From: Paraspadella gotoi
Lineage: Eukaryota > Animalia > Chaetognatha
Reading direction: 5' to 3'
NCBI GenBank assembly: GCA_051294375.1
Contig: CM119271.1
Location: forward strand, 1,358,721-1,422,720
Length of the DNA: 64,000 nucleotides
Of the stretch, positions 4,876-63,927 are shown one piece after another. The position numbers and the translations under genes were made by a program. A model generated the notes under the pieces. That model was not told the DNA's origin. It ran no database searches and saw only the letters and a program-made list of their open reading frames with translations. Positions within the stretch are counted from its first letter, which is position 1, and the number at the start of each line of letters is the position of its first letter.

Positions 4876-6302
4876 ATATTCTTATACCGGCCAAGGTAGA
4901 ATGATGGCAATATTGTTAATATTAAGTTTCAAAAAAATCCAACCATAAATATAGAAAATATTAACCAAAATCTTTGGAAAATCCACCCCTTCTTTGGAAG
5001 ATTTTCGCCATAGATAGGGATTAGCAGTATTCGACGAAATTTTTATTTTTCTATCGGCCGAAAAATAATAGGGAATTTCATTCCAAAAAACAAGGCTTTT
5101 TGAAATATTTACTGTATGGAAAATACTAAAAAGAAAAATTTTATTTTTTAAATATAGGTACTGTAAGGGTAAGTCTAACTAAAAACCGAAAAAGAATCTT
5201 TCAAATAAGAAAAATATTGGAATAGTACAGAAAGCAATATTTATTTTTATTGTTGCGCAAAAACTAGGCTTTCCTCGCAAAACCTCTGGTTACAGGAGAT
5301 GCAAATGGGTTTTCTCTCAACATATTGATCATTATTGATTCCCAAAAATGATGCGCAAAAATGCGCCAGCAGCAGTTCTGGCGATAGTCATTTTATATCA
5401 TCTTTCCTATTGTATATTAAGGCCTATGAATCATCAATATGTATGAAACTGATATAATATATTTATTATGATCTTAAGATTTATCATGCCTTTTTTCTGC
5501 CTACAACAATTCCTCCTTTGCTAAATATACATGATACCTATAATTATTATAATGGGTAATATCTTTATTCATAGTCTTTTTTTTAACTAAGTTCAAATAT
5601 AAACCTCAAGGACCATTGTTGATCCACAATTTCTGATACTTTTAATAAAATTGGTCCACTGACTTTTACGTGGTATATCTTAGTTTCTTTTTATCTATGA
5701 TTTGAGTTTTATTTTTGGTATTCGTTTTTTCTTTGATTTTAAAGAATCAAAACCGAAAAGTAATCGACTTAGAATCGGAGATTGTATAAAAATAAAAGAG
5801 AAAAGAAAAGGGAGGAAAGGGAAAGAGATGAGGGGATAAAGTGGCGCAGTTTTACGTCAATTTACGCCATTCTACGCCAAAGCATCTTAACTTAATAGCT
5901 TTATTTGGAAAATGAAAAAAAAGTTTTTACGCCACAAAATTAAATGATATTAATATGGTTTTCTGTTCATTTTATGCCATTCTACGCCAAACTTTGTATA
6001 AATAAGGCTGGAAAAATATTTAAATCAACCTGAGTAGTTTTTACGAGAAAATAAACAAAAAGTCTTTACGCCACAGAATTAGATAATATTTATATCGTTT
6101 TTTGTTCATTTCACGCCATTTTACGCCACAATTCTTTTCCAAATTTAAATATAAACATTTAATATATTCTTATACCGGCCAAGGTAGAATGATGGCAATA
6201 TTGTTAATATTAAGTTTCAAAAAAATCCGACCATAAATATAGAAAATATTAACAAAAATCTTCGGAAAATTCACCCCTTCTTTGGAAGATTTTCGCCATA
6301 GA
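4876..6302. repeat. 139-bp near-identical direct repeat pair (4876-5014 and 6164-6302), with TTTACGCCA-motif tandem units at about 5850-6130
   Basis: ATATTCTTATACCGGCCAAGGTAGAATG...GAAGATTTTCGCCATAGA occurs twice with few substitutions. Confidence 0.8.
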
Positions 6303-6905
6303 AGATTTTCCAGAATCTGACTCCCGGTTGAAAACTCTTAGAATTCCGATCGTTAGCTCCTCTTTTACTTTTACTTTAAATAAAAATTTCACCAAAATGG
6401 ACTAATTCACTTTACCATGATCGCATCATATCAAAATACCAAATAAAATGTAAAGAAAAATTTTGAGAGCCCTTCAGACACTTTGCCAAAGGATTCCAAA
6501 ATTGGACCTCATTTGTTGAACAGGAACATACCTCAGTCACGTTTATATTGTTTTCAAGGAAAAAAATTCCTTTCATTTCTATATAAAATCAGAGATGGAA
6601 AATTTTTCCGTCCAGAAGCAGTCTATTTGTTCTGGCTTGTTTGATATCAAGATGTTGATGATTTGAAAAGAGAAAAAAATGCGAGCCCTTCAGATGCAAC
6701 AGGATCGGAATCAAGTGTTTTTACATCGATATTTTACCAGAATTTTTACCAGGAGCGTTTATATTGTTTGGTAGTCAGATTTGAACGAAAATCTCCATTG
6801 AAAAAGTCTTCCTCGATCTCTAAGAACGACGTATACTCCTAATTCAACCAATTTTAAATGTATTTTGTTATACAGATCGTGCTAAATCCAGCATGACTAA
6901 ACCTG

Positions 6906-22970: not shown

Positions 22971-24522
22971 ATGACGAGGAAAAGTGCCTTGACCGTGGAT
23001 GACATTCATCGCCTCCTCTTTGCACACGAGGGCGGAAGTCATTTCCCGACGGAAAATGTCAACGAGATCTTGAAATCCCAGATATTTATTGGTAATTGGC
23101 GGCCAAAAAAATACATTTAATAATAATGAGACAGAATACATACTCAAATTGTTATGAGTTAGTGATAAAACCGTTCAATACAAGTAAGCATGATGAGTGG
23201 TATTTTTTGTAGAATGGCCTGTAGTCGGGCATTGAATAGGTTCACCACGCCTATAAGCATGACACTTTCAGTTGTGACCCGGTGGCTCATTGAGTAAAGG
23301 CATCAGCTGATGACCACGAGGTACCGGGTTCAATCCCAACCGGTACCTACCCTGCGGGAAGTGTGAGGATGGCCGTAAGACGCCTTGGGGGTGTGGCAAA
23401 CCCTCAAGCCTGGTTCCAAGCCCAGGACCCGTTCCATGGCTGTTAGAGGGGGTTATAGAAGTTACGGATAGTCATCTTCAGCCCACTTCGCGCCTTATCC
23501 ACAGGATCACCTTGATACGGCAAGGATCGGCTTAATGTTTGTCAGTGGTTCAAAGACAGTTCTGATATAATGATTCATAACCTGCAGCAAATATTCGGGC
23601 AGCCATTAGCACCACCATTTAATTGGCACTAATCAAGCGATCAAGAGCGGGCGTAATATAAAATTACTTAAAACATCTTAAACGGATTAAAAAGATTGAA
23701 ATCTTTTAAAAACTCTAAAAACCTATTATAATAATATTACGTGATCTGCATAAAAGGAAAAGGGGTTAATACAAATTAATACATAATGATAATCAATTAT
23801 CAAGTTACAAATAGGAGATGTTGACAGTTTCAGTGATTCTTCAAAAAATTTAGTCTAACAAGCAGTCCCTGAACTTTGGATCAGGCTGTAACACCGTGTT
23901 ACACTGTAACTTACAGGCGAGTGAAGACTGAAGAGTCCCGTCCCTCTTAACTGCAAAGCGGCCACCGGGCTAGAACCCTGGACCTTTGGGTTGGGAGGTG
24001 AATGACTTTCCTCCTGCACCAATGACCGCTGTAAACCGGTTGGCGGATTTTAAGCCACCAGAATAACGTGTTTAACTTTCAAAATCTCTCTCAGGAAATC
24101 ACCGCGCCGCCTTCGACACTCCGCTTCTTCTCTCACTCGGCGTCACGCACGTTTTGAACGCCGCCCAGGGCGAGGGTGCCTTTCGAGTCGCCACCGACGC
24201 CGATCACTACGCCGACGCCGGACTATCTTTCATGGGCGTGCCAGCTGAGGACGCCGCTTTCTACGATCTCGCCGCCCACTTTGACGAGACGTCCGCCTTC
24301 GTCGATGCGGCTTTACTCCACGGAGGACGGGTCTTCGTCCACTGTCGCGAGGGCTACAGCCGCGCCCCCACGATCGTCACCGCCTTCTTGATGAAGAGGC
24401 GAGGGATGAGCCTCGTGGAGGCATTGGGGAAGATCAACGAGCGGAGGAAAGTCTGTCCCAACTCTGGGTTTTTGGAGCAGCTCATCGAATTGGATCAAGA
24501 ACTGAAAAATGACAGAGAGTAG
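22971..24522 (+). CDS. DUSP3: Atypical dual-specificity phosphatase, DUSP3/VHR-like; exons 22971-23091 and 24095-24522
   Basis: Phase-1 splice gives QIFIG-NHRAAF...LGVTHVLNAA. Catalytic loop VHCREGYSRAPT and CPNSGFLEQL. Start codon uncertain. Confidence 0.8.
23276..23560 (+). mobile_element. tRNA-derived SINE-like sequence in the DUSP intron (3' end approximate)
   Basis: Pol III A-box-like TGGCTCATTGAG and B-box GGTTCAATCCC (23327-23337) with tRNA spacing, followed by a GC-rich non-tRNA body in an AT-rich intron. Only one copy in the window. Confidence 0.5.
23859..24051 (-). mobile_element. tRNA(Gly)-like SINE family, copy 1
   Basis: Clearly similar to 61411-61582. The minus strand has an A-box-like TGGTGCAGGAGG and B-box-like GGTTCTAGCCC, plus body hairpins (CCTGA..TCAGG; TGTAACA..TGTTACA). 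Confidence 0.65.
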
Positions 24523-24996: not shown

Positions 24997-26560
24997 ATGG
25001 TCGTCTCGGACGCCCACGCCTCGCCGCATCATCGCAACAATCATTCGCTTCATCATCATCATCTTCCGCTCAATCATCATCATCATCAGAATCCTCAGCG
25101 TCATCCCAACCGCAATCGCCCCGCTATGTTGGGCAGCGAGAGCCCGAGTCAGGGCTCCGCCGATGGATCCTCCAACAACAGCAACCTCAACCAACCCCAT
25201 CAGCTTCTCAACGCCGCCTCCGCATCCTCAGCCAATACCATCATGTCCGGCAACATGTTCGTCAGCGTCAACATCGGCACGCAGCCTCCCGGCGTCGCTT
25301 CCTCCCACACGCCGCCCGCTCAACATTCGCATTCCAACTCGCGTTCATCCTCTTCCTCTTCCCATCGATTCACGCCGAGATCGACCTCGACTGGCCATCC
25401 CCCGACCGGAATTCCTCCGCCGCTGCCGCAGCAGCATCAGCAACTGCAGCACCTTTCGTCTCAAAGCGGCGGCGGCGCCGTCGCCGGTGGTTATCACGTT
25501 CCGCCTAATCTCTATCACGGCTCGTGGCCTTCGGGCGGCCCCGAGAGAGGACCTCAGTTTGGCGGCGCCGCTGGCGCCGGCGCCAGAGACGGAGTCGAGG
25601 GGGACCTCGGCCACGGCTTTTACGGCGCCCAGTTAAACTCAATCTTTCAGCAGGAAAAGCAATTTCCGGCGTCTATGCCGCCAGGGCAGCCTCATCACGG
25701 CGTCGTCGGCGACACTGACTCTGTTATGAGCTTCCGGTCGAGCAACTCTGGCTCCGGTAATCATTCCCGGCAAAGCCGACCGGCGCCGTCGCATCACCAC
25801 CTCGCCCCGCCGCCGCTCGTCGCCGCGCCGCAGCACCTGATGCAGCTGGGAAGCGTCGCCAGCGCCACCGCTGGCCCGGCCGGCTCGAAGGTGGAAATGG
25901 TCTATTCCTTACTCTCCATGCTTGGCACCCATGACAAGGAAGACATGTCTCGAACTCTGCTGGCCATGTCCTCCTCCCAGGACAGTTGCATAGCCATGCG
26001 CCAGAGCGGCTGCCTCCCTCTGCTCATTCAACTGCTTCACGGCAACGAGAGCGAGGCCTCGTTGCTAGGCAACACGCGCGGGAGTCGGGCTGCACGAGAA
26101 AGGGCCTCCGCCGCGCTGCACAACATCGTTCACTCGCATCCGGACGACAAACGCGGGCGGCGAGAGGCAAGGGTGTTGAGGCTGTTGGAATCGATTCGCG
26201 CTCACTGCGACCAACTGAGGAAAGACGGGGAGGTAAGAAAAGGTGTTGAGGGGCAGCCGGGAGGTGTTTTTGTTACAGAGAAATTCAGAGAATGATAAAA
26301 GAAATTCATATGAAATTTTTCCCAAGTAACATAGTTTTTATTTGTTTAAACAACGATGGTTTAAATTTTGGACAGGTTTCGGTTTTAAATTTAATCAGCG
26401 CAAGGTTTGACAGTTTTTTGAAATTTTATAGTTTAGGAGAAAAAACAATTTATTTGTTTTTATCAACGAATTGTATTATTGGTAAGACATGTTTCGACTC
26501 TTGAGTTTTAGAGTCTTCATCAGTTATGACAATCAATATTTTTACTCTTTAACATTAGTT

Positions 26561-26596
<36 letters not shown>

Positions 26597-26695
26597 AAAG
26601 AGGAGGGAGTTTCCAACAAAGAATTGAGCAAAGGACAGTGGTCAGATATGAGGACAGGTGAAGGTAGAATCAGGGGAAAAGTTGGGTGAAATTTG

Positions 26696-26731
<36 letters not shown>

Positions 26732-29700
26732 ACAGGGTAAGAGAAAATCTTACATTTTTTTGTAATGTATAACAATGATAGAGATAAAATAACAAACTTA
26801 ATAGTTAAACTAATAGTAACATTGTAAATAAATTAATGAGTTAAAGAAGTTGAAATTGAAATAGAAGAATAAGTGATGAGGGATAGGTAAGTAAAGAGTT
26901 AGTGAAAATTAAGTTGAGAGAAAGAGCTCAAAATGAGCTGGCCCCCCCCCGGTTGGCAAAGGTGGGACGTTTGCGATAGGCTCGGGTCATTGGCTTGTCA
27001 TGGGCTGAGAAGATATGACTGTGGAGTGTGACATTTCGGGACCTGGTAGTGATCCTCCTGGGAAAATGCTAACGCCACTTCGAATATCTCTCTGGCCTGA
27101 TAGGCCTGCCGATGGCCCTCCTCTCACCTGACGGTGAGGTGGGCGATTGCCTGTTCTTGCCTGCTTTGGTGCAGGAGATACAGACTCCTCTCCCTCCTCC
27201 TGTAGCCGTCGTTTTTGGACGACGCCCAGTGTGAGAAGAGTCATGCCAGGTTGCTACAGGCTCGGGAGAGTATCGGTCGTCCATTGCCTGCTGGGAGGTC
27301 TCCGCCTGACCCGTTGAGTGGGGGCAGGGAATCACCGTGCGGTTGGGCGGCTCTGGGCGTTCCACCACCAACTTGATAAGCGAATCATAGCTTGGAGGGA
27401 GATCGAAGCGTCCCTCCATCACGGTTCAGAGAGGGCTCGAGGGCTTTGATGTAGATAGCCTCTCTAATACCTCTTGAAAACCAATTTTGGTCATGGGACA
27501 GCACGAGGCAGTCCGTCTCTCTAAACAGATTGGCCAGAGGCTACAGAAGTGCTCTGAGATAGCTGACAGGTAGTGACCTCGTGAGTCACGGTAAGGTTTC
27601 GTATGTTGCTTGACCGATCTGAGAGAGATTTTCCTGTCTCGCCACGTATGCTGCTGTGCAGGGTTGGTTTCCCTTGCCTGCACAGGCCGCCCAATAGACG
27701 GCTCCTGATGTTTTCGTTCTGGGGATTTTGTCTTTTCGGTTTCACCAGTTGCTCACGTAGAGAACCGGGGTCGTCACTGAAGTGGAGATCCCCTGCTTTG
27801 CCAGCACCCGCACCAAAGCTTCAGTGATCCCCTGGTGGTAGGGAGGGACAAGTGACCCACGTTCTTGAGACGCTTCTGCTTATCTCCCATTTGCGCTGTG
27901 GTGGGCGCGGTTGGTCCTTCAGCAGCAAGGTCCGTTCTTCTCCTCCCCTGGGGGGCGGAGGTTGAACCTGCTTTAGCGGCTACTTGGGCAGCCCCTTGGT
28001 GGCCACTGCCTCAGCTTGGTTCTGCCGGACCTAGCCTTCTCGAATGCCCACAGAGGGTAACCATTGAGCGCCAAGGCTCTTTTGACATGCTCAAGCTCGG
28101 CGGCCTGGAGCTCGGGGGTCGACGGATCAGAAGAGCTCTCTGGTAAGGGACTGACTGTGGCGAGCTTGTGTGACAAGGGGGCGTGCAAATCAAAGGAAAT
28201 GTATTGATCAGTATGCGTTGGTTTGCGATAGACAGAAAACTCCAATGAGCCGCCCTCTTTGCGCTTTATAAGCACATCGGCATTGGAATTTTACCATTCT
28301 CCTCTTTTTCACACGTCCACTTGATACTCGCTTTGATGCCGTTCAAGTGTGTTAGTAAGGCTCAACGAGATCCCTTTGCACAGCCAGGATGGTATCGTCT
28401 GCTTTCCGATACCAGAAGAGAACTGACTCTGCCCCATGCAGAGATCGAAAGAAGCCAAAGCTTCCACCTTCATAGTCCTCCATATAGAAATCTGCCAGAG
28501 GACTTGAGGTTGATTTGCCCATCCCTAAGCCACCAGGCTGGGCATAGTACCGTCCATCGAACCTGAAGTACGCCAGTTCCAGGTCGAGCCGCAGCAGTGC
28601 CATGATATCATCCAATTGGATTGGCGTACGCTCGTGTAACAACCGGTCTCCTCTTCAGGCGGCGTTCTGCGGATGCTAACGCCAGTCCCTGAGGGATGTT
28701 AGTGAACATACTTTTTAAGTCACACGAGACCAAGAGATGACTATCGGGCACTATGATATGCTGGAGCTTTTCTGTCAGATCGAGAGAATTTTTTGAGGTG
28801 TGTTGGTTTCCGACAAGAGGAGTGAGAATGCGTCCCAACTCCTTCGTCATTCCATTGAAATGGAATTGCGGGCCGATACGATAGGGCGTAACGGTAAATC
28901 GCGGGCTTATGAACCTTCGGTGACCGAAGAAAAGAGGCGGCTGCGTTGAGTCAGGGTTGACTCTATGGAATACTGCGGGGAACAGTATTCGCGAATTTTG
29001 CTTGTCACCGTCTGGATCTTAACTCTGTAAGAGCAAGAGTAGGATCCTTGTCAAGGGTTTATACGTCTCCTTGTCCGATAGCATTTTCGTAACCTTGGAC
29101 TTATAGTCTTGAGTGTTCATAACCACTGCAGCTCGCCCCTTATCTGCGGGGTGAACCATGATGGCTTGATTGCGCTGAGTGAGGCAATGGCCTTGCGCTC
29201 ACTCTTACCAACATTAGAAGGCGGCGGAACTCGTTTGGCATTGAGTATTCTTGCGCCCCTGCCCGAAGGGTAGCCGCCGCTTCGGGCCGTTGATCTAGGA
29301 GCCGGGCTCCTGTTTCAACGCGACGATGAGGTCAATAACAGGGATTTTAAAGGGTGTTTGGAACAAAAGACAGACCTTTTTAAGATTGTATTCATCTTTC
29401 GACATTTCATGGGAGGAGTGATTGGAGAGCCAACACTCCTGGGCTTTGACGACTTCATCACTGGAGAGGTGGAAAAGTTCGTTGCGCCGCGCTGGCGTCT
29501 ATCCTTTTCGAGAACTTCCTGAGCGTGGCACCAGCGAAGTTGTTCAACTTCCGTTTCTGTCTTTCTTTGTTGCTTGAAATACCCGGGCGGCGTCGCTTTC
29601 GATTCCGCATTGTAGGAGCTACTTCGTTCTGCGAAGGACTTTCATGGAGATTTTTGTTAAACTCTGATTACCAAATATGTCAACGCCCGCGGAAATTCAG

Positions 29701-30687
29701 GAAAAATAATGTAAAACATCGATTCCGATTGTTGATCTGAAGCTCGATTTTTTTTTTTGACAAATACATCATTGACATGCCATTCAGATTCAATGGTGGT
29801 CCGCTGGGAAAAATTTTGATGCAATTTTATATAAATAAAGGATTTCTCACTTACAAAATGTGCACGCATTTAAGTAGTGTCATTTACAATAAACTTCGAA
29901 CAGACGAAGCAATATTTGGCTCTCAAATTTCTTTACTTTTTTGGTTATTGATTGATACGATCATTGTTGTGATAGCCTTTTGGAATTTTATTTAAAGAAA
30001 GTAAAAGAGGAGCTTAAGATAGAATTTGAGTTTTCAACGCGGGAGTCGATTCTGAAAAAATCTTTATGCGAAAACTTCTCAAGAGGTGGATTTTGCCGAA
30101 GATTTGTTATATTTTCTATATTTATCGGTTTCATTTTTTGTTTGCTTTTAGAATTTGCTTTCCTGGCCGTCGAAATATCCTCGATTTCAGCTTGTCTGCC
30201 ATTGGCCCATCTTTCAGGCGAGAGGAGAGGTGGGCCAATGAGTTGAAAAGGCGTTGACGGTTCGGGGCGTAGGCGCGCGAGGCTGCCCATGGCATCGATC
30301 AATGAAGTTTGAAAGGAGACGTCTTCTTGTTTGTTTCGATGACGTTTCTGTCTTTGTTCCGTTTCGAATTTATTGATAGACGTGATGGCGCGCGGGATTA
30401 CGCCATATTTGCGACAGGCAAGGGAGAAGTGCAAGTGATTGTACCAACGTGAGAGACTTTCGAAATGTTGGAGAGTTTATTAATTGACGCTTTTACGGAC
30501 TGGTTTGTTTGATTGGTAGACATTGTGTATAAACTATCAATTTTCGTTGCGTTTTGAAGTTTAGGAGAAAAAACAATTTATTTGTTTTTATCAACGAATT
30601 GTTATATTGGTAAGACATGTTTCGACTCTTGAGTTTTAGAGTTTTCATCAGTTATGACATCAATATTTTTACTCTTTAACATTAGTT

Positions 30688-30721
<34 letters not shown>

Positions 30722-31390
30722 AAAAGAGGGAGTTTCCAACAAAGAATTGAGCAAAGGACAGTGGTCAGATATGAGGACAGGTGAAGTAAGATCAGGGGGA
30801 AGAAGTTGGTGAAATTTGGAATAAGAGAGAGAGAGAAGAGAGAGAGAGAGAAGAGAGACACAGGGTAAGAGAAAATCTTTACATTTTTTTGTAATTGTAT
30901 AACAATGATAGAGAAATAAAATAACAAACTTAATAGTTAAACTAATAGTAACATTGAATAAAATGAGTTAGAAGTTGAAATTGTAGAATAGTGAGAGGAG
31001 GTAAGTAAAATGAAAATTAAGTTGAGAGAAGAGCTCAAATGAGCTCATTTTAGCTCTTTCTCTCAACTTAATTTTCACTAACTCTTTACTTACCATCCCT
31101 CATCACTTATTCTTCCTATTTCAATTTCAACTTCTTTAACTCATTAATTTATTTACAATGTTACTATTAGTTTAACTATTAAGTTTGTTATTTTATTTCT
31201 TATCATTGTTATACATTACAAAAAAAATGTAAAGATTTTCTCTTACCCTGTGTCTCTCTCTCTCTCTCTCCTCTCTCTCTTATTTTTATTAAATTTCACC
31301 CAACTTCTTCCCCTGATCTTACCTTCACCTGTCCTCAATACTGACCCACTGTTCCTTTGCTCAATTTCTTGTTGGAAAACTCCCTCTTTT

Positions 31391-31425
<35 letters not shown>

Positions 31426-34400
31426 AACTAATGTTAAAGAGTAAAAATTATGTTGTCATAACTGATGAAGACTCTAAAAACTTCAAGAGTCGAAACAGAT
31501 GTCTTTACCAATAATACAATTCGTTGATAAAAACAAATAAATTGTTTTTTCTCCTAAACTTTCAAAACCGCAACGAAATTGATAGTTTATACACAATGAA
31601 ATTTTATAAAATTTTTATTTTACGCTTGGAGTTGTATTCTGAATTTCGAATTTTCGTATAGAGAAATTTAGTTTTTTCTTGGTTTGATTTTTTAATATTT
31701 TTTAAAATTTTATTCTTATATAGTAAAACAAATTTTGAAAAACTTATTTAATTTTGCAATTATGATAAAATGAAATGAAACTTGTCCATAATAATAAAAA
31801 ATCGTTGTTTTTCAAAGTCACAAACACAACGAAAGAAATGATTAAAAGATAATAAATAAAAAGATACATATTAATTAAAAAAAAAAAATTAATGTATTAA
31901 TTCCCTTCCTCTCCGCCTTTAATTTCAAGGACGAAACCGCCTTCTTGGATCACGAGAACAGTAACGAACGGGAAGGCCCCTCTCCCGCCGGCGCCGGTTC
32001 CCTTAACGGCGGCCACATTGACCACCAGCCGGCGCCGGCCGTTGCCGCCCTCATGAAGCTCTCATTTGACGAAGAATACCGTCATGCCATGTGTCAACTC
32101 GGCGGGCTCCAAGCCATCGCCGAGCTCATCCAGACCGACTTTGAAACCTTCGGCCACCACCCCGTCGTGGGCGGCGGCGGTTGCGTCATGACCATGTCCA
32201 TGACAGCCTCGACCATCAGCGACAGCGACCCCCAGTATCACATCTCCATTCGACGCTACGCTGGAATGGCGTTGACCAACCTCACCTTTGGCGACGGCAC
32301 CAACAAGGCGCTGCTCTGCTCAATGAAGCATTGCATGATGGCTCTGGTGGCGCAGCTAGATTCGCCTTCGGAAGAGCTGCGCCAAGTGACGGCTTCCGTG
32401 CTGCGGAATCTCTCTTGGCGCGCGGATCTGGCGTCGAAGAAAACTTTGCGGGAAATCGGCTCTGTCTCTGTTTTGATGCAGAGCGCAATGCAAGTCAAGA
32501 AAGAGTCGACGCTAAAGGCAATCCTCAGCGCGCTCTGGAATCTCTCCGCCCACTGTTCAGAGAACAAGGCAGATATCTGCCGAGTCGGCGGCGCGCTCGA
32601 GTTTCTGGTGGGCACGCTGACCTACAAGTCGCCCTCGAAGACATTGGCCATCGTGGAGAATGGGGGCGGAATTTTGAGAAACATCTCGTCGCACATCGCC
32701 GTCAATGAAGATTATCGGAAGGTGCTGAGGCATCATCACTGCCTTCACATTCTTTTGAAGCACCTCAAGTCCGAGTCTTTGACAATTGTCTCCAACGCCT
32801 GTGGAACTCTGTGGAACCTCTCCGCACGTTGTCCCGAGGATCAAGAGACCCTGTGGGAAATGGGCGCCGTTAGTATGCTCAAGTCTCTCGTCCACTCAAA
32901 GCACAAGATGATTTCCATGGGAGCTTCGGCCGCCCTAAAGAATCTCCTCCAGGCCAAACCCAATCTCAACGTGATGACCTCCTCCTACGGAATGGGCGGA
33001 GGCGGCGGCAAGAGGAGCGGGAGCAACTCTCTCACTTCCAGCACCTACAGCAACAATGGATCTTCGCAGGGAAAGGACGACCCACTTCCTTCATTGCACG
33101 TGAGGAAGCAGCGAGCTTTGGAACAGGAGTTGGCCGCCAACGAGAATTTGCCGGAAACGTGTCCCGATAACATTGACAATCCCTCGCCTCCCGCGCGTAC
33201 GAATCTCTACCCTCATCATCACCATCACAACGGCGGGCGCCATTTTCCGAACAACAACGCCGCGGGGAATGACTCGCCGCAGTTTTCGTCGGATGTAGAT
33301 CCCAAGAGAAACTTGGTCAAGACCTTCATTCAGAATCAGGCCAAGGCGGCGAAAGAGAACGCCGCCGCTCTGCCGACTCAGGCGAAGGAAGAATCAGAAG
33401 TTTTGATCGCCGAATCGCATCATCAACAACAACAACAACCACATCTCGGCCTCGACTTTCAGCGATCTGGAAGTCAACTCTCTGGCAGAGACTTTGAACG
33501 TTCTGGAAGTCAAATCTCAGTTTGCGGCTCTTCCAAATCGGATAATGCCTTCAATCGCCAGCGCGTCATGACGAATCCCTTCGCGATCTCCGCCGAAAAC
33601 TTCACCTCTCCTTCGAATCATGCGGCGAAGAAATCCATGGATAAACTGGCCGAAATATTCCCGGCCGAGCCAAGCGCAGAGTTGTCCGGCAACCCGAGCG
33701 ACAAGGCCTTGTCCGTCGAGCCAGAAATCGTCAAAAAGTATTCCGCCTATGCCGAATCCGAGATCGAGGAGAACGAGGATCAACCCACCAACTTCAGCCT
33801 CCGCTATCACGAGGAGGAAGACGACGAGAGCGCCATCGTTAAGGAGCAGATGGAGACAGGGTGCCACGAGGATGCCGTCAAGATGTACTGCACCGAGGAC
33901 ACCCCTCTCAATTTTAGCGTCGCCACGTCCCTGACAGATTTGTCCGGCGCCGGAATCTCCAAAGAGAACGCCGGCGTCGTCGGCGTCGGGAAACGTACCG
34001 ACGAGTCTCCTCTTGAAAAAGAGGAGGCTTCCGCTTCTTCTCGAGTCGTCGAGGAAAAAGGATCATCGGCGAAGGAAGATCAAAGACGGGGTTTGAACTC
34101 GGAGGCTACTCCTCTGAACGCTCTGAACGCGGCGAGCATGGACAAAACCAACTCGTATTATGTGGAGGGAACTCCGACTTGCTTCTCTCGAGTTTCGTCT
34201 CTCAGTTCTCTCCACAGTTGCGACGCGGAAGATCGAAGATCGACTGCTTTCCCCTCCTCGGAAAAACCTAAGATCAACGATGATTCTATGTCGGCGACGA
34301 AGCAGCCTGCTCTCCCTCAGAAAGAGCCAACACCGCAACCTCCCAAGCGGGCGGGAAGCGACGTGTCGAAAATGGTCAATCCTGCCACTGGGGAAAAAGT

Positions 34401-37400
34401 GATATTGGAGGACGCTATCGTTCTTGGATCGGAAGAAGAGAAGATCAACGAAGATCCTCTTCCCTTACCCTCTCCCCCGGAAGAGCTTCTGGAAACGCCA
34501 TCCCTGACCACCGCTGTCAAAACAAAGCCAAGTGGCAAAACAGTTTCCTTCTCCCAAGAAACACCAGAATGTCAAAATCCCGCGAACCAAAAGATTAGCG
34601 AGAACATGGTGGACACGCCTCTCATGTTTTCGCGCTGTTCCTCGGTGGGATCGCTAAGCTCCATGGTTGATCCTAATTCCGTACACGACGATAGAGGCTC
34701 CGTCGTGTCTGACTATTCCCGTCTGACTTCTCGGGCAGTCTCTCCCTCTGAATTGCCCGACTCTCCTTCAGAATCGATGCCGACTTCTCCCAAGCGGGGC
34801 CGGAGCCCCATCGCGGACAAATCGCGGAAAGAAAAAGCGGTGGAGACGCCGCCTCCGCCGCCCGCCGAGTCATCGACCAAAGAAAGAGTCGAGAGACAAT
34901 TGATCGAAGTGAATTGCCCGGAAAAGCTCGTGCCCGATGATTCGACGCGCTCCTTCTGGACGGAAGGGACGCCAGGCATTTCGGGCGGCTGCTCGCGAGA
35001 ATTTTCCGAAACGTCAAGCCTCCTCTCCGCGTTGACGATCAACGACGGAGACGTCGGCGAAAAGGCGAAGATCACGAGAAAACCGACGACGACGAACGAA
35101 TCGAAGACCCTCGACGCGGCTGAGTCTAACGGCGGAAAAGGCGGTCAAGTCTCCACGATTCCTTCGGCAAAGTCGCCCGCTATGGAGGAGGCGAGCGAGG
35201 CGACCAAATCACAGGCTTCGTCTTCGATAACTTCTGTTTCGTCCGACTCCAAATCCATCGTCTCCGTGAAAGCCAACGTCAACTTTAATCCCAACTCGAC
35301 CCCGACCCTCAACGCGCCGTCGAGCGAGCGAGAAATTTGCGACGCCGAAATCTCCGACATGTCGGAAAGCGAGGAGGATTTGCTGGAAGCCGTGATCCAG
35401 GTTGGCAAGGGCAGATTGTCCGGACGAGATCAAAAGCCGAAACCTGCGAAAATTCACAAAGGCAGAACGATGGGGAATAGACGGATCGAAACGTCTTTAT
35501 CAAAAGTGGACAAAACCCAGAGTGGCGAACGAACCCATAATAAAGTGAACGTTTTGAAAATGACGACGCCGTCGGCAACGAGGGCTCGCAATTTGCCCGG
35601 AAACAAATCATCGAGCGGAGTGACGCCCGATTTGTCTAATTCCTCGTCTCCCGCCGTATCGACGCTTAACGAACCCGTCAAAAAACTGATCGCCGATGAA
35701 ATTCCACGAACCTATCACACTGAGGACACGCCGAAGACGCAGTTTAGCGCGGCCACGTCATTAAGCGATTTGACGATTGACGACGAAACGGAAACTGACC
35801 TTCGCGCTGGAAGACCCGGATTTTCTCTCGCTGGGAAGAATCAGCTGCCGCAACAGCAGCAACTGCAGCAGCAACAACAGCAACAACCCAAATCCACTAA
35901 AAATAGGGAAGAGTCTCAACTCTCCGACGACAGCAGCCTCTCCGGAGACGAATCCGATCTGATGGAGTGTATCAAGATGGCGATGCCGACGAAACCGATC
36001 TCCAGCGGTGCCGCTGTGAAGCCAAGTGAAAATATCAAGACAAAGCCGAATATTAAAATCTCTAAGACGGCGCCGCTGGTCAAACCCAAATCTGTCAAAA
36101 CTAAGCCGATATCGCAGAACCCAACGCCGATGAGAGATAATTTCGTGAGAAAATTCAATGCGTCGCCGGATCGAGGAAAAACCAAGACTCCGGAATCTAC
36201 AAGGTCCACGGAGGCTTTTCACCATAATTTGGAAGGATTTTCATCTCATATCGTCGAGCCGGGCAACGATTCGCCCATGATATTTTCGGGGGTGGAAGGG
36301 ACACCGGCCGTATTTTCGCGAAACGATTCGTTGAGTTCTCTATCCTGTGACGACGATGCTGTAGAGAGATCTCCTAAAGAAAAGAGCATCGTCAAACCGA
36401 TGAGGCATTCAAGCTTCTCGCCCGACGCGGAGAAGACGAGCGCGAAGCTCTTGCCGCGGCCCAAGACTTCTCCCGGGTTGGCCTCTCCAGTCGATTCTCG
36501 AAACGGCGGATCGACTCCACGGTCTCCCGCCCACGGACCTTCGACGGGAATCCCGAGGTTGGCTTTTCGAAGAAGCCGCACCCCTTCCGTGGAAAGGGTC
36601 AAGGTTCCGCCGATGAGCGCCGTCTCCAGCGCCACCTCGCCCAGCATTCATTCCCCTCAAACCTTTCTACAGGTGGAGGGGACCCCGATTTGCTTTTCTC
36701 GGAATTCCTCTCTTTCTTCGTTGAGTTTAGAAGACGAGGAAGGAGGGAATCAAGCGACGAGGAAAAAAGGAGACGGAGAAAATTCGGAAAAGCATAAAAA
36801 TAAAGACGATCAGATGGAAGAGGGAGAAGAGGCGTTGCTCGACGAGGTTCTAAGCGCGGGTCTGCCAAAGGGAAAATTCAAGAAAAAGCCAGGATCTATT
36901 TTTCAAAAGAATTCCTTCAAGAGAACCGGGCTCGTCCCGGGAAATTTCGGTCCTCAATCTAAAACGACGAATCGAGCGACTCCAGCTCAGACGCCCGAAA
37001 GGAAAAAGACGACGAAGCCTAACGAAGAAAGAGGAATTCCCTTCAGTCCAAAGGTAAGACAAAAGGCGGTCGTTACGCCGAAAATAAAGGAAGTCGCCGG
37101 CAAAAAAACCGTCGCAATCAACGAGCGAAAAAAGTCAGAAAATACGGAGAAAAATCCGAAAAAGTCCGCGGATCCTGAAGAGAATTTCAGCGTCATCAAT
37201 ATCGTCTACGAATCGGTGGAAGAGAAGGCAACGTTGCAAAACCGAATTCCCGATGGCGAATGCTTGGATGACATTGAAATACCCTCGATAGCCAACGAGT
37301 TGGGAGATTCTCTCTCTTCTTCCGGCGGAATGTCGCTCTCTTTAAATAGCGAGAAGGGAGGAAAGGAAGAGCCGGAAAAAGTTCTTCCTTCAAAAGTGGA

Positions 37401-40017
37401 TGACTCGACGCCGGAAGAAGGCGGATTCAAGGCCGTCATCTTCAGCGGCGGTTGGGCCACACAAGAGGGAGAAACGCTGGACGGAGCTTTCGGCACGGGG
37501 ACGACGACTACTTCGAAACCCGTTCCCGCCGTGAAATCCATAGCAAGCTCGACGAATAAAGATCAAGCTTACGAGTCGCCGGCCGTGACGACGGCGGAAC
37601 GAAGAAAGACGAAAAAAGAAGAGTTGTTAGCCGCGTTGTCGGCGGAAGTGGCGAGTCGACGCCAGCAGAAAGCCGCCTCGATAAAATCCTCTTCGGAAAA
37701 GCAAGAAGTTCGTCCGGAGATTTCTCGCGACGCTCCCAACGTTAACGACGAGACCTACCTCATCGAGAAACCCTTCGACGATTCCGTCGCCTCCCAATCG
37801 ATTTCCCTCTGTGAAGATCCCGTCAAGAATCTGAGTCCGGAGCAGCAAAGGCTTTTGGAGGCCGAGGCGAATCTCGTGGCATCTAATATACGCCAATCGA
37901 GCGAAGTTTGTAAGTTGGACGATCTCATCGACGAGTTTAATCTCATGCTCGTCAACGGGGAAGGTATCGACAACGAGACCATGTCCGTCGCCTCCTGCAT
38001 GAGCGAATCCCAGGAGATCGACGATCACACCTTCAGCAAGGCTCCGACGACGGTGGTTTCGTCCAAGGGGCCGAGGATCGTGAAGCCGAGCGAAAAGGAA
38101 GAACTCGTCGAGGCGAAAGGAGTAAGGGGGAAACGCAAGTTGTTGTATCCCTCTCAGAGCGCCAAACCGATCGCCAATGGCAACAAAGCGCCCGTTTCGA
38201 TCAGAGGAGGGGGCGGCATTTCGACGCCGGGTACGAACGAGTCTAAAACTCAATTAAGAAAGCAGCAACGAGAAGGAACCGTCATCAACAAAGCCGCGCA
38301 ACAGTCGTCGCAGAGCAAAGCTGCCAATGGTGGCCAATCGCGTTCCAACACATTCACGCGGCCGGAATCGTCGTCTTCCAATTCGTCTTCGTCCCCCATT
38401 CCTTCTCCCGTCAACCATCCGAGCAAAGAAGACAATTCCTCTCCTCCCAGGCCTCCGGGACCTGTGAAGCAAGGAACCTTCACCAAAGATTCTCCCTCGG
38501 ATAGCGAAATGAACGTCCCGCTCATTTCACCCTCTTCCCCTTCCAAATCCAAAGCTGGTCGTCTCAAGACGCAGTCGCCGTCGCCTTCTCCGACGAGCCG
38601 GGGAATCTCCGCCCCCGCTCGATCTGGCGGTCACGGATCCGCCGGTAAATCGAAAGCCGCGGTCAGCCACGCCAACCAGCGGCCACGAACCGCGACTCCA
38701 TCCGGAGTCGCCTCCAACTTCAAGAATCGCAGCGCCAGCCGCGCTAGCTTGGGCAGCAGCGGCAGCGCGTCGGCGTCCAGCCTCAAAGGAAGCCACGCCT
38801 CTTTGAGTTCGAGCGGGAATAAGTCTGGAAACAAAAAGGCGGCGTCGACGAGCGATTTGATCGCCAACGGAGTCGCCTCGCGTCATTACAAGAACAAAGA
38901 AACTCTGCAATCCGTCGAAAAGACTAAAGCAAAGTCTGTCTCGGCGGGCGGACTCAACAATCCCCGATTGACCGTCTCGCCCAAGGGTGCGGAGAAAAGG
39001 GGCGCAGCCGGGCCGTCCACGGCCGTCGTGGGTCCGAGCAAACGGACCGCCGTCGTTAGCAAGATTGCGAGTCTCTGGAAAAAGGAGAAGAAAAGCGAAT
39101 CCGAGGGAAAAGAGGATGGAAAGGCAGAGGCCGGCAAAGACCCCGCCCTCACTAAGAGCTCCACCTACGAAAAATTGGAAAACGCGTCCCTCGACGCGCT
39201 AAACGCGGGAAAGAAGAAACAGGGAACCTTTACGAAAGACGACAAATCCGCCAAACCCAAACTGGACAACTCCGCCGGCATCTCCTCCATCGGCGGGTGG
39301 GCGAAAAAGAGAGCGGAGAGAGTCTCCAACTCGGAATCCAAGTCCAAAGCGGCAAAAGCAAAGAACAAATCTTCTTTCTACGTCAATCTCGAGTATTCCG
39401 CCGGCGAGGGTCAAAGTTCGTCGGAACCGGCGGCGGGCGCCTCGGAGTCTTCGCGGGACATATGGGTGAAACGGGCCGACGCCGCGGCGAGTCTCGACGA
39501 ATGCGGCAAGGGTCAAGGATCTGAGGAGCGCCGCCCATATTCATCGCAAAACTCCGAGGCCGGCAGCACCAAGTCGGTCAATCGCGCCGGAAACAAGACG
39601 CCCACTTTGGAGCGACTTAACTCTTTCATTAAGTTCGACAATTGGAGCGGAGCGGAGGATGCGGCCGACAGGCGCTCCACCTCTAGTGGAGCATCTACAC
39701 ACGCCGGCGCTGCATCCTCCAACGGGCGCGCCGACTCAATCACGAGTCTTTCCGCCAAATCCTCGGGACGAGTCTCTGTCGCTTCTCTGCAACGGAGCCC
39801 CACGACCGAATCCATCATGGCCGCCGCCTCCGCCGCCGTGCAAATCGTAACGCCGTTTAACTGGAGTCCGCCTGCCGACGCTGCCGAAGCCGATGAAGAC
39901 GCCGGCATTGCTCGAAGTCGGAAGCAGTCGAGCTCGGCGCGGTCCAATGCGGATTCGGCCGAACTCGAGGCCGAAGACGGAAGGAAGAAGAGCACCTGCT
40001 TGATCACGACTGTGTGA
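24997..40017 (+). CDS. APC: Adenomatous polyposis coli; 2 exons 24997-26232 and 31930-40017 (about 3100 aa)
   Basis: GSKVEMVYSLLSML...SCIAMRQSGCLPLLIQLLH. Armadillo repeats (RRYAGMALTNLTFGD, LRNLSWRAD). 15-aa repeat EDQPTNFSLRY and multiple 20-aa repeats (EGTPxxFSRxSSLSSL). Region B/CID (TPLMFSRCSS...SPSELPDSP), SAMP-like CIKMAMP, C-terminal PDZ ligand ITTV. Phase-0 GT-AG junction. Confidence 0.95.
26431..26940 (-). repeat. Penelope pseudo-LTR, 3' copy, with (GA)n tracts
   Basis: Near-identical to 30559-31045 (direct) and to part of 31044-31598 (inverted). Confidence 0.9.
26478..26537 (-). ncRNA. Minimal type I hammerhead ribozyme, copy 1
   Basis: Minus strand reads UAA-CUGAUGA-A-GACUCU-aaaacuca-AGAGUC-GAAA-C-AU-GUC/UUA. 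Intact core boxes, 6-bp stem II, self-complementary ACAUGU stem III, GUC cleavage triplet. Confidence 0.85.
27069..30523 (-). pseudogene. Frameshifted Penelope RT-GIY-YIG polyprotein ORF
   Basis: RT, thumb and endonuclease motifs appear in the right order but are spread over several frames (ORF-track pieces at 27069-28850 and 29988-30434). Confidence 0.8.
30606..30665 (-). ncRNA. Minimal type I hammerhead ribozyme, copy 2 (about 90 nt upstream of the element ATG)
   Basis: Same motif as copy 1, but the first stem II pair is disrupted (AACUCU vs AGAGUC). Confidence 0.7.
31452..31512 (+). ncRNA. Minimal type I hammerhead ribozyme, copy 3 (sense to the APC pre-mRNA)
   Basis: CTGATGA at 31462-31468, GACTCT/AGAGTC stem II, then GAAAC-AGAT-GTC. 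Confidence 0.78.
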
Positions 40018-55100: not shown

Positions 55101-55750
55101 AAATGGTGCTTAAGCCGGACCCGCGATGGGACCGAACCGTGTTACAGGTCCGGGGGTGTTAATGAGAGAGAGGGAAGCTTAACCTCTTCCTCCTCAAATG
55201 TTCGCGTTCCCCCCCGTATACGAGATAGGCGGACGGAGGAAGGAGCAGGGCGTTAACCTGGAGGCCCTTTTTCAAAATATAACATTGTGTACGAGATAGG
55301 CGGACGGAGGGAGGAGCAGGGCGTTAACCTGGAGGCCCTTTTTCAAAATATAACATTGTGTACGAGATAGGCGGACGGAGGAAGGAGCAGGGCGTTAACC
55401 TGGAGGCCCTTTTTCAAAAATAACATTGTCCCCCCCCCCCATTCACTCCCCAGGATTGTCTCGAGCCCGCCCGGCTGGCCCGCGTCCGTCGTCTCAACAC
55501 CCTGACGACCTCCTTCGACTCGATGAAGCAAGGATCCTTCCATCAACCCCCCATCAATCACGAGGGTGAGCTCGATGATCTCTGGATGGTTGAGGTGGAA
55601 CGCGTTCTCGGCTTTCCCGATCATTACACGGACGTGGCGAATCTTCCGCCGCGCGATCGACTGGCGCTTCTTGCCATCTCCTGCTCCGTCCCGCTCGTCC
55701 GTCACATCCTCGCTCCGCTGAAAGACTATTTCGCCGTCGAGAAGGCGTAG
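52132..55750 (+). CDS. DNMT3-family protein with substituted catalytic residues; 7 exons approx. 52132-52998, 53200-53610, 53694-53922, 54087-54244, 54459-54783, 54932-55147, 55454-55750
   Basis: RRPMKVLSMFDGISG, VGDAR, GPFDLLVGGLPVDD, PFYWCFYNV, RRPDFFWTNLPGM, LQDCLEP, SMKQG, VERVLGFPDHYTDVANL and SVPLVRHILAPLKDYF are collinear with the DNMT3 methyltransferase domain. The frame stays open across GT-AG junctions. Linkage of the N-terminal exons is less certain. Confidence 0.85.
55216..55429. repeat. 71-bp tandem triplication in the last DNMT3-like intron
   Basis: ACGAGATAGGCGGACGGAGG recurs at 55220, 55291 and 55362. Units are almost identical. Confidence 0.9.
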
Positions 55751-61410: not shown

Positions 61411-61582
61411 AAGCAGTCCCTGAGCTACGGATCAGGCTGTAACACTATGTTACAGGCGGGTTAAGCGCCCCGTCCCTCTTAACTGCTAGGCGATCTCCAG
61501 GCTAGAACCCCGGACCTTTTGGTTGGAAGGCGAATGAATTGCCTCCGGCACCAATGGCCACTGATGAACGGTTGATGGATTT
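61411..61582 (-). mobile_element. tRNA(Gly)-like SINE family, copy 2
   Basis: Homologous to 23859-24051. Minus-strand head TGGTGCCGGAGG...CGCCTTCCAA...GGTTCTAGCC resembles tRNA-Gly(TCC). Perfect CTGTAACA-cta-TGTTACAG hairpin. Confidence 0.65.
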
Positions 61583-63292
61583 TGGTCTACCATAATAACA
61601 TACATACGTGCATAGCAACTATACTAGCTGGAAGGTTACAAATTTGTAGAAAAAAAGTCAAGTATTTTTCTATTTTTATGAAAAAAATTTATGACCTGAT
61701 TGCTCTTCGTTTCAATTATGTTATGTTTTTTCTTATAACCCCAGTTGAAGTCCCTGTAAGTAAACAGGGTCCGCGCGCTCTTTTGGGAAAAAAATTGGGA
61801 CTTAATTCTGTTAAAACCGTTGTTATGTAGATAAAAACCGATAACATTTTTGAAAACCTTGTGGTCTTGGCTTTCAGTCAATGCCCAAAATGTTTACAAA
61901 TTTTGAAAGGATAATGGCCTAATTAACACTTTTAAATGACATATCGTTTTTTTCTGCGAGCGATGAGATGATTTTCACGACTTTGTCAAATTTTACACCC
62001 ATGTAAGTTGGTTAAAAATAGTGATAAATTAAAATAAAAAAATTAAAAAACTGGAATCTTCTTGATCTTGGCTTTCAGTAAATACCTAATATGTTATGAA
62101 ATTGAAAGATGGAAGAGATAACCCTTTTTTCACCACGAGTCGTTTTTTAAGGGTTTTTAAAAGGTAGGTTAAAAAAATTTAAGAAATTGTTATTGTGAAC
62201 TGTATTTTTGAGTACCCCAAGAACATAAAAATTAGAATAATATTTAGAATAATACTTAAAATAATACTTAAAAGTATTTTGTGCCAGAATTGGTTTAATA
62301 AGACATTTACCAATATTGAAACAACTGGCTTGTTAATGCAGTAGCAATTGGGTCAGTTTATGGGTGCGCAGTTGCAAAAAACTGTCCTTTCCTTTGGAGT
62401 CATTTATTCAGACTGGTATTATTAGGATTATGATAATGATTATGAAAATGAATTTTTCAAAATATTCCTAAAAGAGCGCGGGGACCAGGTATTTAGTTTA
62501 CTTCATATGTAGCGATTAGACAGATCGATCAAAAACTCTCCTCCGCATGCTTTTCGGGTTTTTGCACGTTGAATCCATTGTTTTCCTTAACGGTTAACCC
62601 GAATTAATAAAGTTATATCGATTTTACCCCCCAAAAAGTCGTTATTCGATAGGGAGATCGAAACTGTAGTTTTTTGAATGATGCATTTCATAACGGCATA
62701 TTTCATTTTAATGAGTACCAAGTACTTAATTTATATATTAGTAATTTGTTTTACTTGCTCAATAGCAAGTATGTTTTTTAACTAGGAATTTAATAATGAC
62801 TCTAGTAGGTACCAGTAACGATTGATTTAAAAAGATATTTAAACAAAATACGAAAATTTCAGAGAGTGAGGGGAAGATTTTGTTCTTTTTTATATGTAGG
62901 TAATTTTTTTCAAAAATGAATTTTATAATTGATTTATTAAAAATTTTATGACTCATGCCTTCATAAAAATATTTTATAACGTCGTATTTTTACCCAATTG
63001 CCAAAGAAAGTTACCCACTTTTCGCGCTTTTTGTGGAAAAGAATTACACCTAATCATTTATTAGTAGATGTTTTTAGATAGTTTTTTTTACCACGGAATT
63101 TACTCGTTTTTTGTTTCCTGGTTAAACTCCGCCTAAATAGATTTTCAGACTTGAAATAGAATTTTTTCGTCGATCAATATAGGAGGGCCGAGTCTAGAGG
63201 CTATAATATTCTGCACGTATTTTTATTTCCCATTTTTTTCTCGACATTTTGGAATGCTACGCCCGAGTTTTTGGGGTAGCGAAGAATAAAAA

Positions 63293-63927
63293 AACAAGTT
63301 TGAGCAAACAATGTCGGATCTGCCTACGATAATTAGGTGGTAATCTGCTAATCAGATAATCACGATAATTCTTTTAATTTGTGATCTTAACTGATCATAA
63401 CAGATTGTACCATACCAAACCAGTAGCTGCGCCAATACTGAACTGTTACTATGGTACAAATAATTTATTTGACTAGTATTTTTTTTTTAACTTGAATCAT
63501 TTTTTCAACTCGCATCATTTTTTCATCTTGCAGCATTTTTTCATCTTGAATCATTTTTTTAACTTGTAACACTTGTTAACTTGCATCATTGTTTAAATTT
63601 GCATCATATTTTAAATTGGCTTCATTTTTTCAAATTGAATCATTTTTCACTCATTTAAACTCATTTCCACTCGCAGGATTCCATCGAAACTTTATATCCA
63701 GCTCAATCACACTTTTCTAACCACACACAAAATTTCATTCCAATCCAACCATACAATCACGACTAATTGGTGTTTTTTGCTAAGGGGGACGGACGGACAT
63801 CATTTTTTTGGTTTTTTTGCATAATTATCATAATTCGATGTTCTGAGATGATTTAAGGGGGGGACCGACGGACCGACAAAGTGGATTATAAAGTCGGGAT
63901 CTGCTGATAAGCAGATCCGACTAAAAA
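63293..63927. mobile_element. Helentron-associated non-autonomous element (HINE / DINE-1-like)
   Basis: AACAAG end. Sub-terminal inverted repeat GTCGGATCTGC (63313-63323) / GCAGATCCGAC (63911-63921). Terminal hairpin 63892-63922 followed by TAAAAA. GGAC microsatellite and an internal ~19-bp tandem array (63480-63660). Confidence 0.7.

Follow-up and report, generated by a model that had tools for sequence, protein, structure and literature searches.

Penelope-like elements (PLEs) have been described as having a typical structure of two pseudo-long terminal repeats (pLTRs) with an adjacent inverted pLTR, a 9-bp target-site duplication (TSD) and an optional 31-bp tail (PMC3846280), and the same pLTR layout is given for PLEs generally in PMC8557442. 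Hammerhead ribozyme pairs on opposite strands of PLEs, 100-700 bp apart, were reported earlier, as was a low in vitro cleavage by Penelope hammerheads, dimers included (both PMC4209133). According to the account in PMC11167929 of PAc, a Poseidon element of Anolis, its hammerhead needs protein, loss of catalysis by mutation does not lower insertion in vitro, and reverse transcription starts at two internal sites matching the tail. Here, we analysed a 64,000-nt stretch of the genome of the chaetognath Paraspadella gotoi (contig CM119271.1; hereafter the window), in which a Penelope/Poseidon insertion with three minimal hammerhead motifs, copies A, B and C, lies in an intron of the gene APC. In our reading, to which we assign a probability of about 0.88, these are a single family motif that occurs three times in the pLTRs of one insertion; they would cut only as dimers of element RNA, likely slowly and with the help of protein, and copy C would be held in a hairpin that likely leaves APC splicing unaffected. 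The observed part of this reading comprises the layout, the TSD, the remnants of reverse transcriptase (RT) and endonuclease (EN), the anatomy of the motif, and the covariation of its class in outside sequences.

Results

The insertion has the layout of a PLE, with an inverted pLTR followed by pLTR-ORF-pLTR (ORF, open reading frame), a TSD outside and, at one end, a tail of the 30-40-nt kind that PLEs optionally carry (Table 1). The three pLTR copies measure ~510-555 nt, the 11-bp TSD bounds copies A and C, and the tail of 38-40 nt is present on copy C only. Without the element, the APC intron would be ~0.5 kb long, and a contig of run X9 connects 26230 with 31928, i.e., the APC exons joined across the intron. 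As the original prediction held, copy C (31452-31512) is in the sense orientation within this intron (26233-31929). At the left junction, contig ends differ by sample, lying at 26459 in X1 and at 26430, the exact end of the TSD, in X5, while X6 diverges after 26436. These sample-specific ends at 26420-26459 may reflect a polymorphic insertion; among the contig joins listed for the runs, none was of an empty site. We considered an assembly artefact such as a fold-back long read as the source of inverted copy C or of the arrangement as a whole, given that the element is indel-rich whereas the host ORFs beside it are long and clean, and that no contig bridges the centre junction of B and C. Against this, an exact 11-bp TSD encloses A and C, X1 contigs extend past the two outer junctions without a single difference, reaching 29 and 14 letters into the element (each below the 31-letter bridging bar), copy C is 40 nt longer than A, and the layout is the published norm; we hold an artefact to be most improbable.

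The hammerhead cores were found where they had been predicted, with CUGAUGA starting (C3) at 26523 (minus strand, A), 30651 (minus strand, B) and 31462 (plus strand, C) and the cleavage nucleotide C17 at 26486, 30614 and 31503, respectively. Hammerhead A reads UAA CUGAUGA A GACUCU-loop-AGAGUC GAAA C AU G U C UUA. The core CUGANGA...GAAA...UH with stems I and II is thus complete in A, and is defective in B and C as assembled. Copies A and C have the predicted stem II GACUCU/AGAGUC; it fails in B, which reads AACUCU, so that the conserved G10.1-C11.1 pair becomes A-C as assembled; this pair, together with an extra nucleotide after A9, is found in A and C, and B has A10.1. Stem III is the self-complementary ACAUGU in both minus-strand copies, in line with the prediction, and the UAA/UUA pairing claimed for stem I stands for A and B; in C, UUUA after GUC leaves 2 bp plus a mismatch. 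In A, the 3 bp of stem I are followed by a 3x1 internal loop and then by a possible extension of 4+4 bp with a G bulge. A check against Rfam models gave no hammerhead match at E<=10 (0/30 matches, and 0/5 in a second scan), and the Rfam miRNA matches at 31012-31077 are merely the palindrome centre. We built a covariance model from 64 motifs outside the window, whose core matches by construction (the core being the finding pattern) and whose stems do not; it ranked A (33.6 bits, E 9e-10), B (23.0 bits, E 8e-6) and C (12.2 bits, E 0.088) as the top three of 12 matches, with the best other match in the window at 11.3 bits. The loose core pattern by itself was at chance level, with 13 matches against 16 expected.

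Some of the letters that set C apart from A are probably errors of the assembly. As assembled, C is longer than A by 2 nt in loop 3, by two letters in loop 2 and by one U behind GUC. With C as the reference for the short-read contigs (X6 has no cover at its indels), the AGAU loop insertion was absent in 2949.5 of 2957.3 units of depth in X1, in 563.2/563.2 in X5 and in 58.2/58.2 in X9, and the extra U was absent in 2957.3/2957.3, 563.2/563.2 and 52.8/58.2, respectively. Hence, the AGAU loop and the extra U are likely long-read errors, and the loop variant proposed for C falls away, as does the idea that it makes C a monomer-competent variant, which we rejected. Since X1 contains both outer junctions while its contigs leave out the indels of C, the true sequence of C is most likely that of the family type, although contigs drop rare variants and the short-read result is therefore short of proof. 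At the place equivalent to A10.1 of B we found no substitution of at least 1%, a share below which a single X1 copy would fall; A10.1 may be an assembly error as well. Zero depth at 29812-30045 and 31620-31700 was not used as evidence. Contigs that match only 31461-31497 carry different flanks, with the two sides unphased, which suggests that there may be sister subfamilies with another stem I.

The motif belongs to a class that covaries in outside sequences. Its exact core occurs in at least 106 metagenome stretches; among the matches listed, to which the following counts refer, there are 120 motifs (98 distinct), of which 64, with differing stem letters and 8-nt flanks, were retained for covariation. 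Their stem cells were paired in 87.8% of cases compared to 58.4% after shuffling (0/500 shuffles as high), a test that relatedness among the motifs inflates, and slid controls, which are free of that fault, paired in 28-44%. Both-sided change was seen in 8/9 pairs, a count that 266/500 shuffles reached. The nucleotide after A9, A in this family, was A in 0/98 distinct outside motifs and mostly U. All 14 loci with two motifs were head to head, as are B and C (L002, L013, L024, L039, L043, L044, L051, L053, L071, L075, L081, L085, L093 and L105), and these contigs are probably host-animal DNA. Because 0/94 ORFs of at least 100 aa in the metagenome loci matched the element, the motifs there are not assignable to PLEs here.

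The frameshift-riddled ORF between B and A fits an element of the endonuclease-positive Penelope/Poseidon kind. A 100-aa RT fragment found 314 proteins at E<=0.001; among 11 of these relatives, picked mostly for length, RVT_1 was present in 9 and GIY-YIG in 6 at E<=0.01, always C-terminal to the RT. When eight relatives were used as tblastn queries, DKG, RT and thumb aligned to the window in order, and the element thus has the PLE-type RT with a DKG motif. A GIY-YIG endonuclease C-terminal to the RT was also found, weakly: a profile built from 24 of 150 listed relatives ranked two consecutive pieces of the element first of 1892 six-frame segments (27741-27589, E 0.005; 27879-27745, E 0.028), with matches weak owing to the frameshifts. 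Two Cys of the CCHH motif of the EN are visible in 27741-27589, and its His positions fall in frameshifted sequence. The CX2-5CxxC linker finger that marks Neptune and Nematis was seen neither by eye before the EN of this frameshifted ORF nor in the 60 residues before the EN of the 24 relatives. A word-indexed homologue search returned 0/772 candidates and a PDB sequence search 0 matches; in the ESM Atlas, the RT fragment matched unnamed clusters plus a single set of which 13% of the members carry RVT_1, and the EN fragment had no matches. The family is very high-copy, with a summed depth hundreds of times that of single-copy sequence in X1. Overall, the insertion represents a new family of a kind whose canonical layout is already known.

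The original prediction had A and B release a unit-length RNA of ~4.1 kb. Their cleavage sites do lie 4128 nt apart, but a nested repeat of ~590 nt accounts for part of this distance: contigs skip 29606-30193 in 4/4 runs and the repeat is absent from other family copies, so that the family unit is ~3.5 kb and the spacing equals the unit plus the nested repeat. Because the repeat interrupts the ORF, this copy is unable to encode an intact protein. We rejected the segment as a retained intron, as it has no fitting GT..AG ends and resembles another repeat of the window. Its own family is AT-rich and non-coding, with two further copies between host genes (also 4870-5014/6158-6302), and no terminal inverted repeats were recognised by eye.

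The element ends also lie beyond the cut, by 55 nt in A and by 93-95 nt in C (at the ATG), and other copies of the family end near 31549-31558 and near 31598-31602. As they lie beyond it, a linear RNA that stopped at the cut was not the template; as both ends bear an intact hammerhead plus downstream sequence, the template was likely an uncleaved multimeric (or re-joined or circular) RNA, and a template jump is also possible. The ends fit RT starting at two internal sites, between which the tail lies. We infer that the endonuclease of the element nicked an AT-rich target and that reverse transcription would have started internally ~55 nt (just 3' of a hairpin) and ~93-95 nt (at the ATG) downstream of the cut; one cDNA would have traversed an entire unit and continued into a second, truncated one, and the other cDNA would have made the short inverted copy, resulting in head-to-head pLTRs and a single tailed end. 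Sense copy C would then be an automatic by-product of the inversion, with no adaptation aimed at APC. A less probable alternative, which we still take seriously, is that A and B cleave as a dimer in cis and free a unit-length RNA that the protein of an intact copy re-inserts after circularisation or a template jump. A and B are indeed tandem and in the same sense, their palindromic ACAUGU can pair between them, dimer processing is the role proposed in PMC4209133, and a circle or template jump would likewise place the ends past the cut. However, G10.1-C11.1 of B is broken as assembled (perhaps an error), a minus-strand transcript from this locus is putative, and for PAc no RNA-seq reads ending at the cut and a main substrate of uncleaved RNA are reported (PMC11167929). 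Copy B would moreover be sequestered in some minus-strand transcripts, with 44/45 nt paired for starts right of ~31500 (31520 on), and free when transcription begins left of ~31460 (2/45 nt for a start at 31460).

Folding predictions, the motif anatomy and the layout support the claim of minimal type I Penelope hammerheads of the dimer type in the pLTRs. In the monomer, stem III had a probability of P<0.001 in both A and B, and free co-folding of two A copies yielded the 6-bp ACAUGU duplex unprompted, i.e., the palindromic helix III that enables a dimer. The proximal stem I was weak, at P about 0.1 versus a median of 0.79 in 103 outside motifs (26/103 lower, among the matches listed). Hammerhead A can also form an alternative hairpin, UUGUCA/UGAUGA, that in the model masks the catalytic core and could serve as an off switch. 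Given a local hairpin that hides the core and the weak proximal stem I, activity would be low without help, in parallel with PAc.

Copy C had been suggested to cut the APC pre-mRNA unless sequestered, and sequestration is what the folding predicts. The B/C hairpin of ~500 bp has 496 cross-centre pairs, 44/49 nt of hammerhead C are paired with the antisense B arm, freeing C costs 57.3 kcal/mol, and stem II of C has P about 0 in the pre-mRNA fold; C is predicted to be paired already in nascent transcripts that end at 31470 or 31510. As C is sequestered by an arm made earlier and has no second sense copy in cis as a dimer partner, a cut of APC is unlikely, and by these predictions C would not fold and cleave in the host pre-mRNA as a host-regulatory intronic ribozyme does. 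One could still imagine that C pairs in trans with hammerheads on family RNAs, cuts either the APC pre-mRNA or a transcript promoted from C, and so lowers APC from the insertion allele. C is in sense in the intron and likely of intact family sequence, the family is very high-copy in X1, the motif is present in an RNA-like run, and fast intronic ribozymes can abort splicing (as cited in PMC10919898). Yet C is held by 57 kcal/mol in a hairpin whose antisense arm is made first, stem III in trans would be just 6 bp, the A-U stem I is weak, and the published activity of Penelope hammerheads is low, which together leave this route very unlikely. We give equally little credence to an action of the inverted pLTR on APC, whether by a promoter that fires into the 8-kb exon with C free of the hairpin or by cutting of C in trans by family RNAs.

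Features of the locus

Table 1. Features of the insertion and its host intron; coordinates are positions in the window.
Feature	Position	Strand	Remarks
APC intron	26233..31929	+	GT at 26233, AG ending 31929; flanking exons match Pfam APC_rep/Arm/APC_r; exon join in frame
Left TSD, GAAATTTTATA	26420..26430		identical to 31598-31608; X1 contig over junction, 0 differences to 26459
Downstream (3') pLTR, copy A	26431..26940	-	end 55 nt beyond cleavage site; tail absent
Hammerhead A	26470..26540	-	core from 26523; extra A at 26516; 6-bp stem II; palindromic ACAUGU; predicted cut after 26486
Penelope/Poseidon ORF	27070..30523	-	frameshift-riddled; ATG 30523-30521; stop position uncertain
ORF parts	ADKG near 29150; RT 29159-28379; thumb 28278-28036; GIY-YIG pieces 27879-27589	-	
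Nested repeat, ~590 nt	29606..30193		interrupts ORF; related to 6220-6803 and 4932-5008 (blastn 77-82%)
Upstream (5') pLTR, copy B	30521..31043	-	5'-truncated at palindrome centre; continues into ORF start
Hammerhead B	30606..30665	-	predicted cut after 30614; A replacing G10.1 at 30643 as assembled
Inverted pLTR, copy C	31044..31598	+	head to head with B, zero spacer; bears ~40-nt tail; terminates at ORF ATG
Hammerhead C	31452..31512	+	sense in APC pre-mRNA; predicted cut position 31503; private indels likely assembly errors
Right TSD, GAAATTTTATA	31598..31608		X1 contig over 31585-32600, 0 differences

Downstream of the insertion, APC runs from its Arm repeats to the C-terminus as a single open frame of 2712 codons (31879-40017, an exon of ~8 kb), in a genome that is very compact. 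The element ATG at the end of the inverted pLTR opens a 21-codon ORF into the host intron, toward this exon (31596-31661), and a promoter in the inverted pLTR near there would fire into APC. Another dispersed repeat has two copies, at 23860-24067 and 61411-61599, that are 80-89% identical, and tandem arrays are found at 55216-55428 (3 x 71 nt) and at 63460-63656 (18-nt unit).

Discussion

Several points weigh against our reading of a dimer-type family motif whose sense copy leaves APC splicing unaffected. Pfam found no RT or EN family on the stop-free fragments of the window (0/11). Covariation is established for the motif class in other organisms, outside this family, whose own copies are too uniform for covariation, with no substitution of at least 1% in the core 31462-31503 in 4/4 runs. 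The double-hammerhead fold reaches -16.8 kcal/mol versus -28.0 kcal/mol for the free co-fold, in which a local hairpin hides the core, and because of this lower stability dimer activity is perhaps low too. The folding is an equilibrium nearest-neighbour calculation that takes no account of proteins, of helicases or of A-to-I editing in the hairpin, and all runs are contigs, which carry no RNA ends. Finally, the spliced X9 contig may come from a sample without the insertion, and its RNA nature is a guess.

Slow intronic ribozymes leave splicing unaffected according to Fong 2009 (as cited in PMC10919898), in keeping with our reading of copy C. A preprint reports that hammerhead retrozymes are depleted from introns (10.64898/2026.07.22.740005), so that intronic copies may carry some cost; here, such a cost would more likely come from the long double-stranded RNA and the tenfold longer intron. 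If the inverted pLTR did act on APC, a gene of the Wnt pathway would be adjusted by a polymorphic Penelope insertion by way of a dimer ribozyme, and comparing filled with empty alleles would show, as an experiment of nature, how active Penelope hammerheads are in vivo. A literature search, mostly without subscription papers, found no case in which a Penelope hammerhead was reported to cut a host pre-mRNA; were C to cut APC RNA, this host effect would have no counterpart in the literature searched. As it stands, the locus matters little, being one more canonical Penelope insertion. Its possibly polymorphic intronic allele offers a place to test in vivo hammerhead activity.

Host intronic ribozymes of the CPEB3 type are conserved. 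They share with copy C a ribozyme motif in sense in a host intron, but they fold as monomers (PMC10919898), whereas C needs a dimer, is sequestered in a hairpin and lies in a young, possibly polymorphic insertion. Much closer are the Penelope/Poseidon PLEs such as Pen2a_Av, for which PMC3846280 and PMC8557442 describe the inverted pLTR plus pLTR-ORF-pLTR, the TSD, a 30-40-nt tail at one end, a palindrome at the head-to-head junction, an RT followed by a C-terminal GIY-YIG, and pLTR hammerheads; the present insertion differs in its nested repeat and in a tail that stops exactly at the ORF ATG and not inside the ORF. With the minimal PLE hammerheads of Drosophila virilis, rotifer, shrimp and mosquito (as described in PMC4209133), our copies share a nucleotide between 9 and 10.1, G10.1-C11.1, a 6-bp helix II, a short helix I and a palindromic helix III that needs a dimer, and they differ in a proximal stem I of 3 A-U pairs, which a bulged extension may lengthen, and in having A as the extra nucleotide. 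Helix II is described as long in this published variant. Finally, PAc resembles this family in its AT-rich target and in two ends downstream of the hammerhead with the tail between them, while its hammerhead overlaps the start codon and its RT starts lie 111-118 nt into the ORF (PMC11167929), in contrast to a hammerhead ~93 nt upstream of the ATG here. The modest value of this locus is that it provides a clean record, from another animal family, of two RT starts (at +55 and, at the ATG, about +93) in line with the PAc model.

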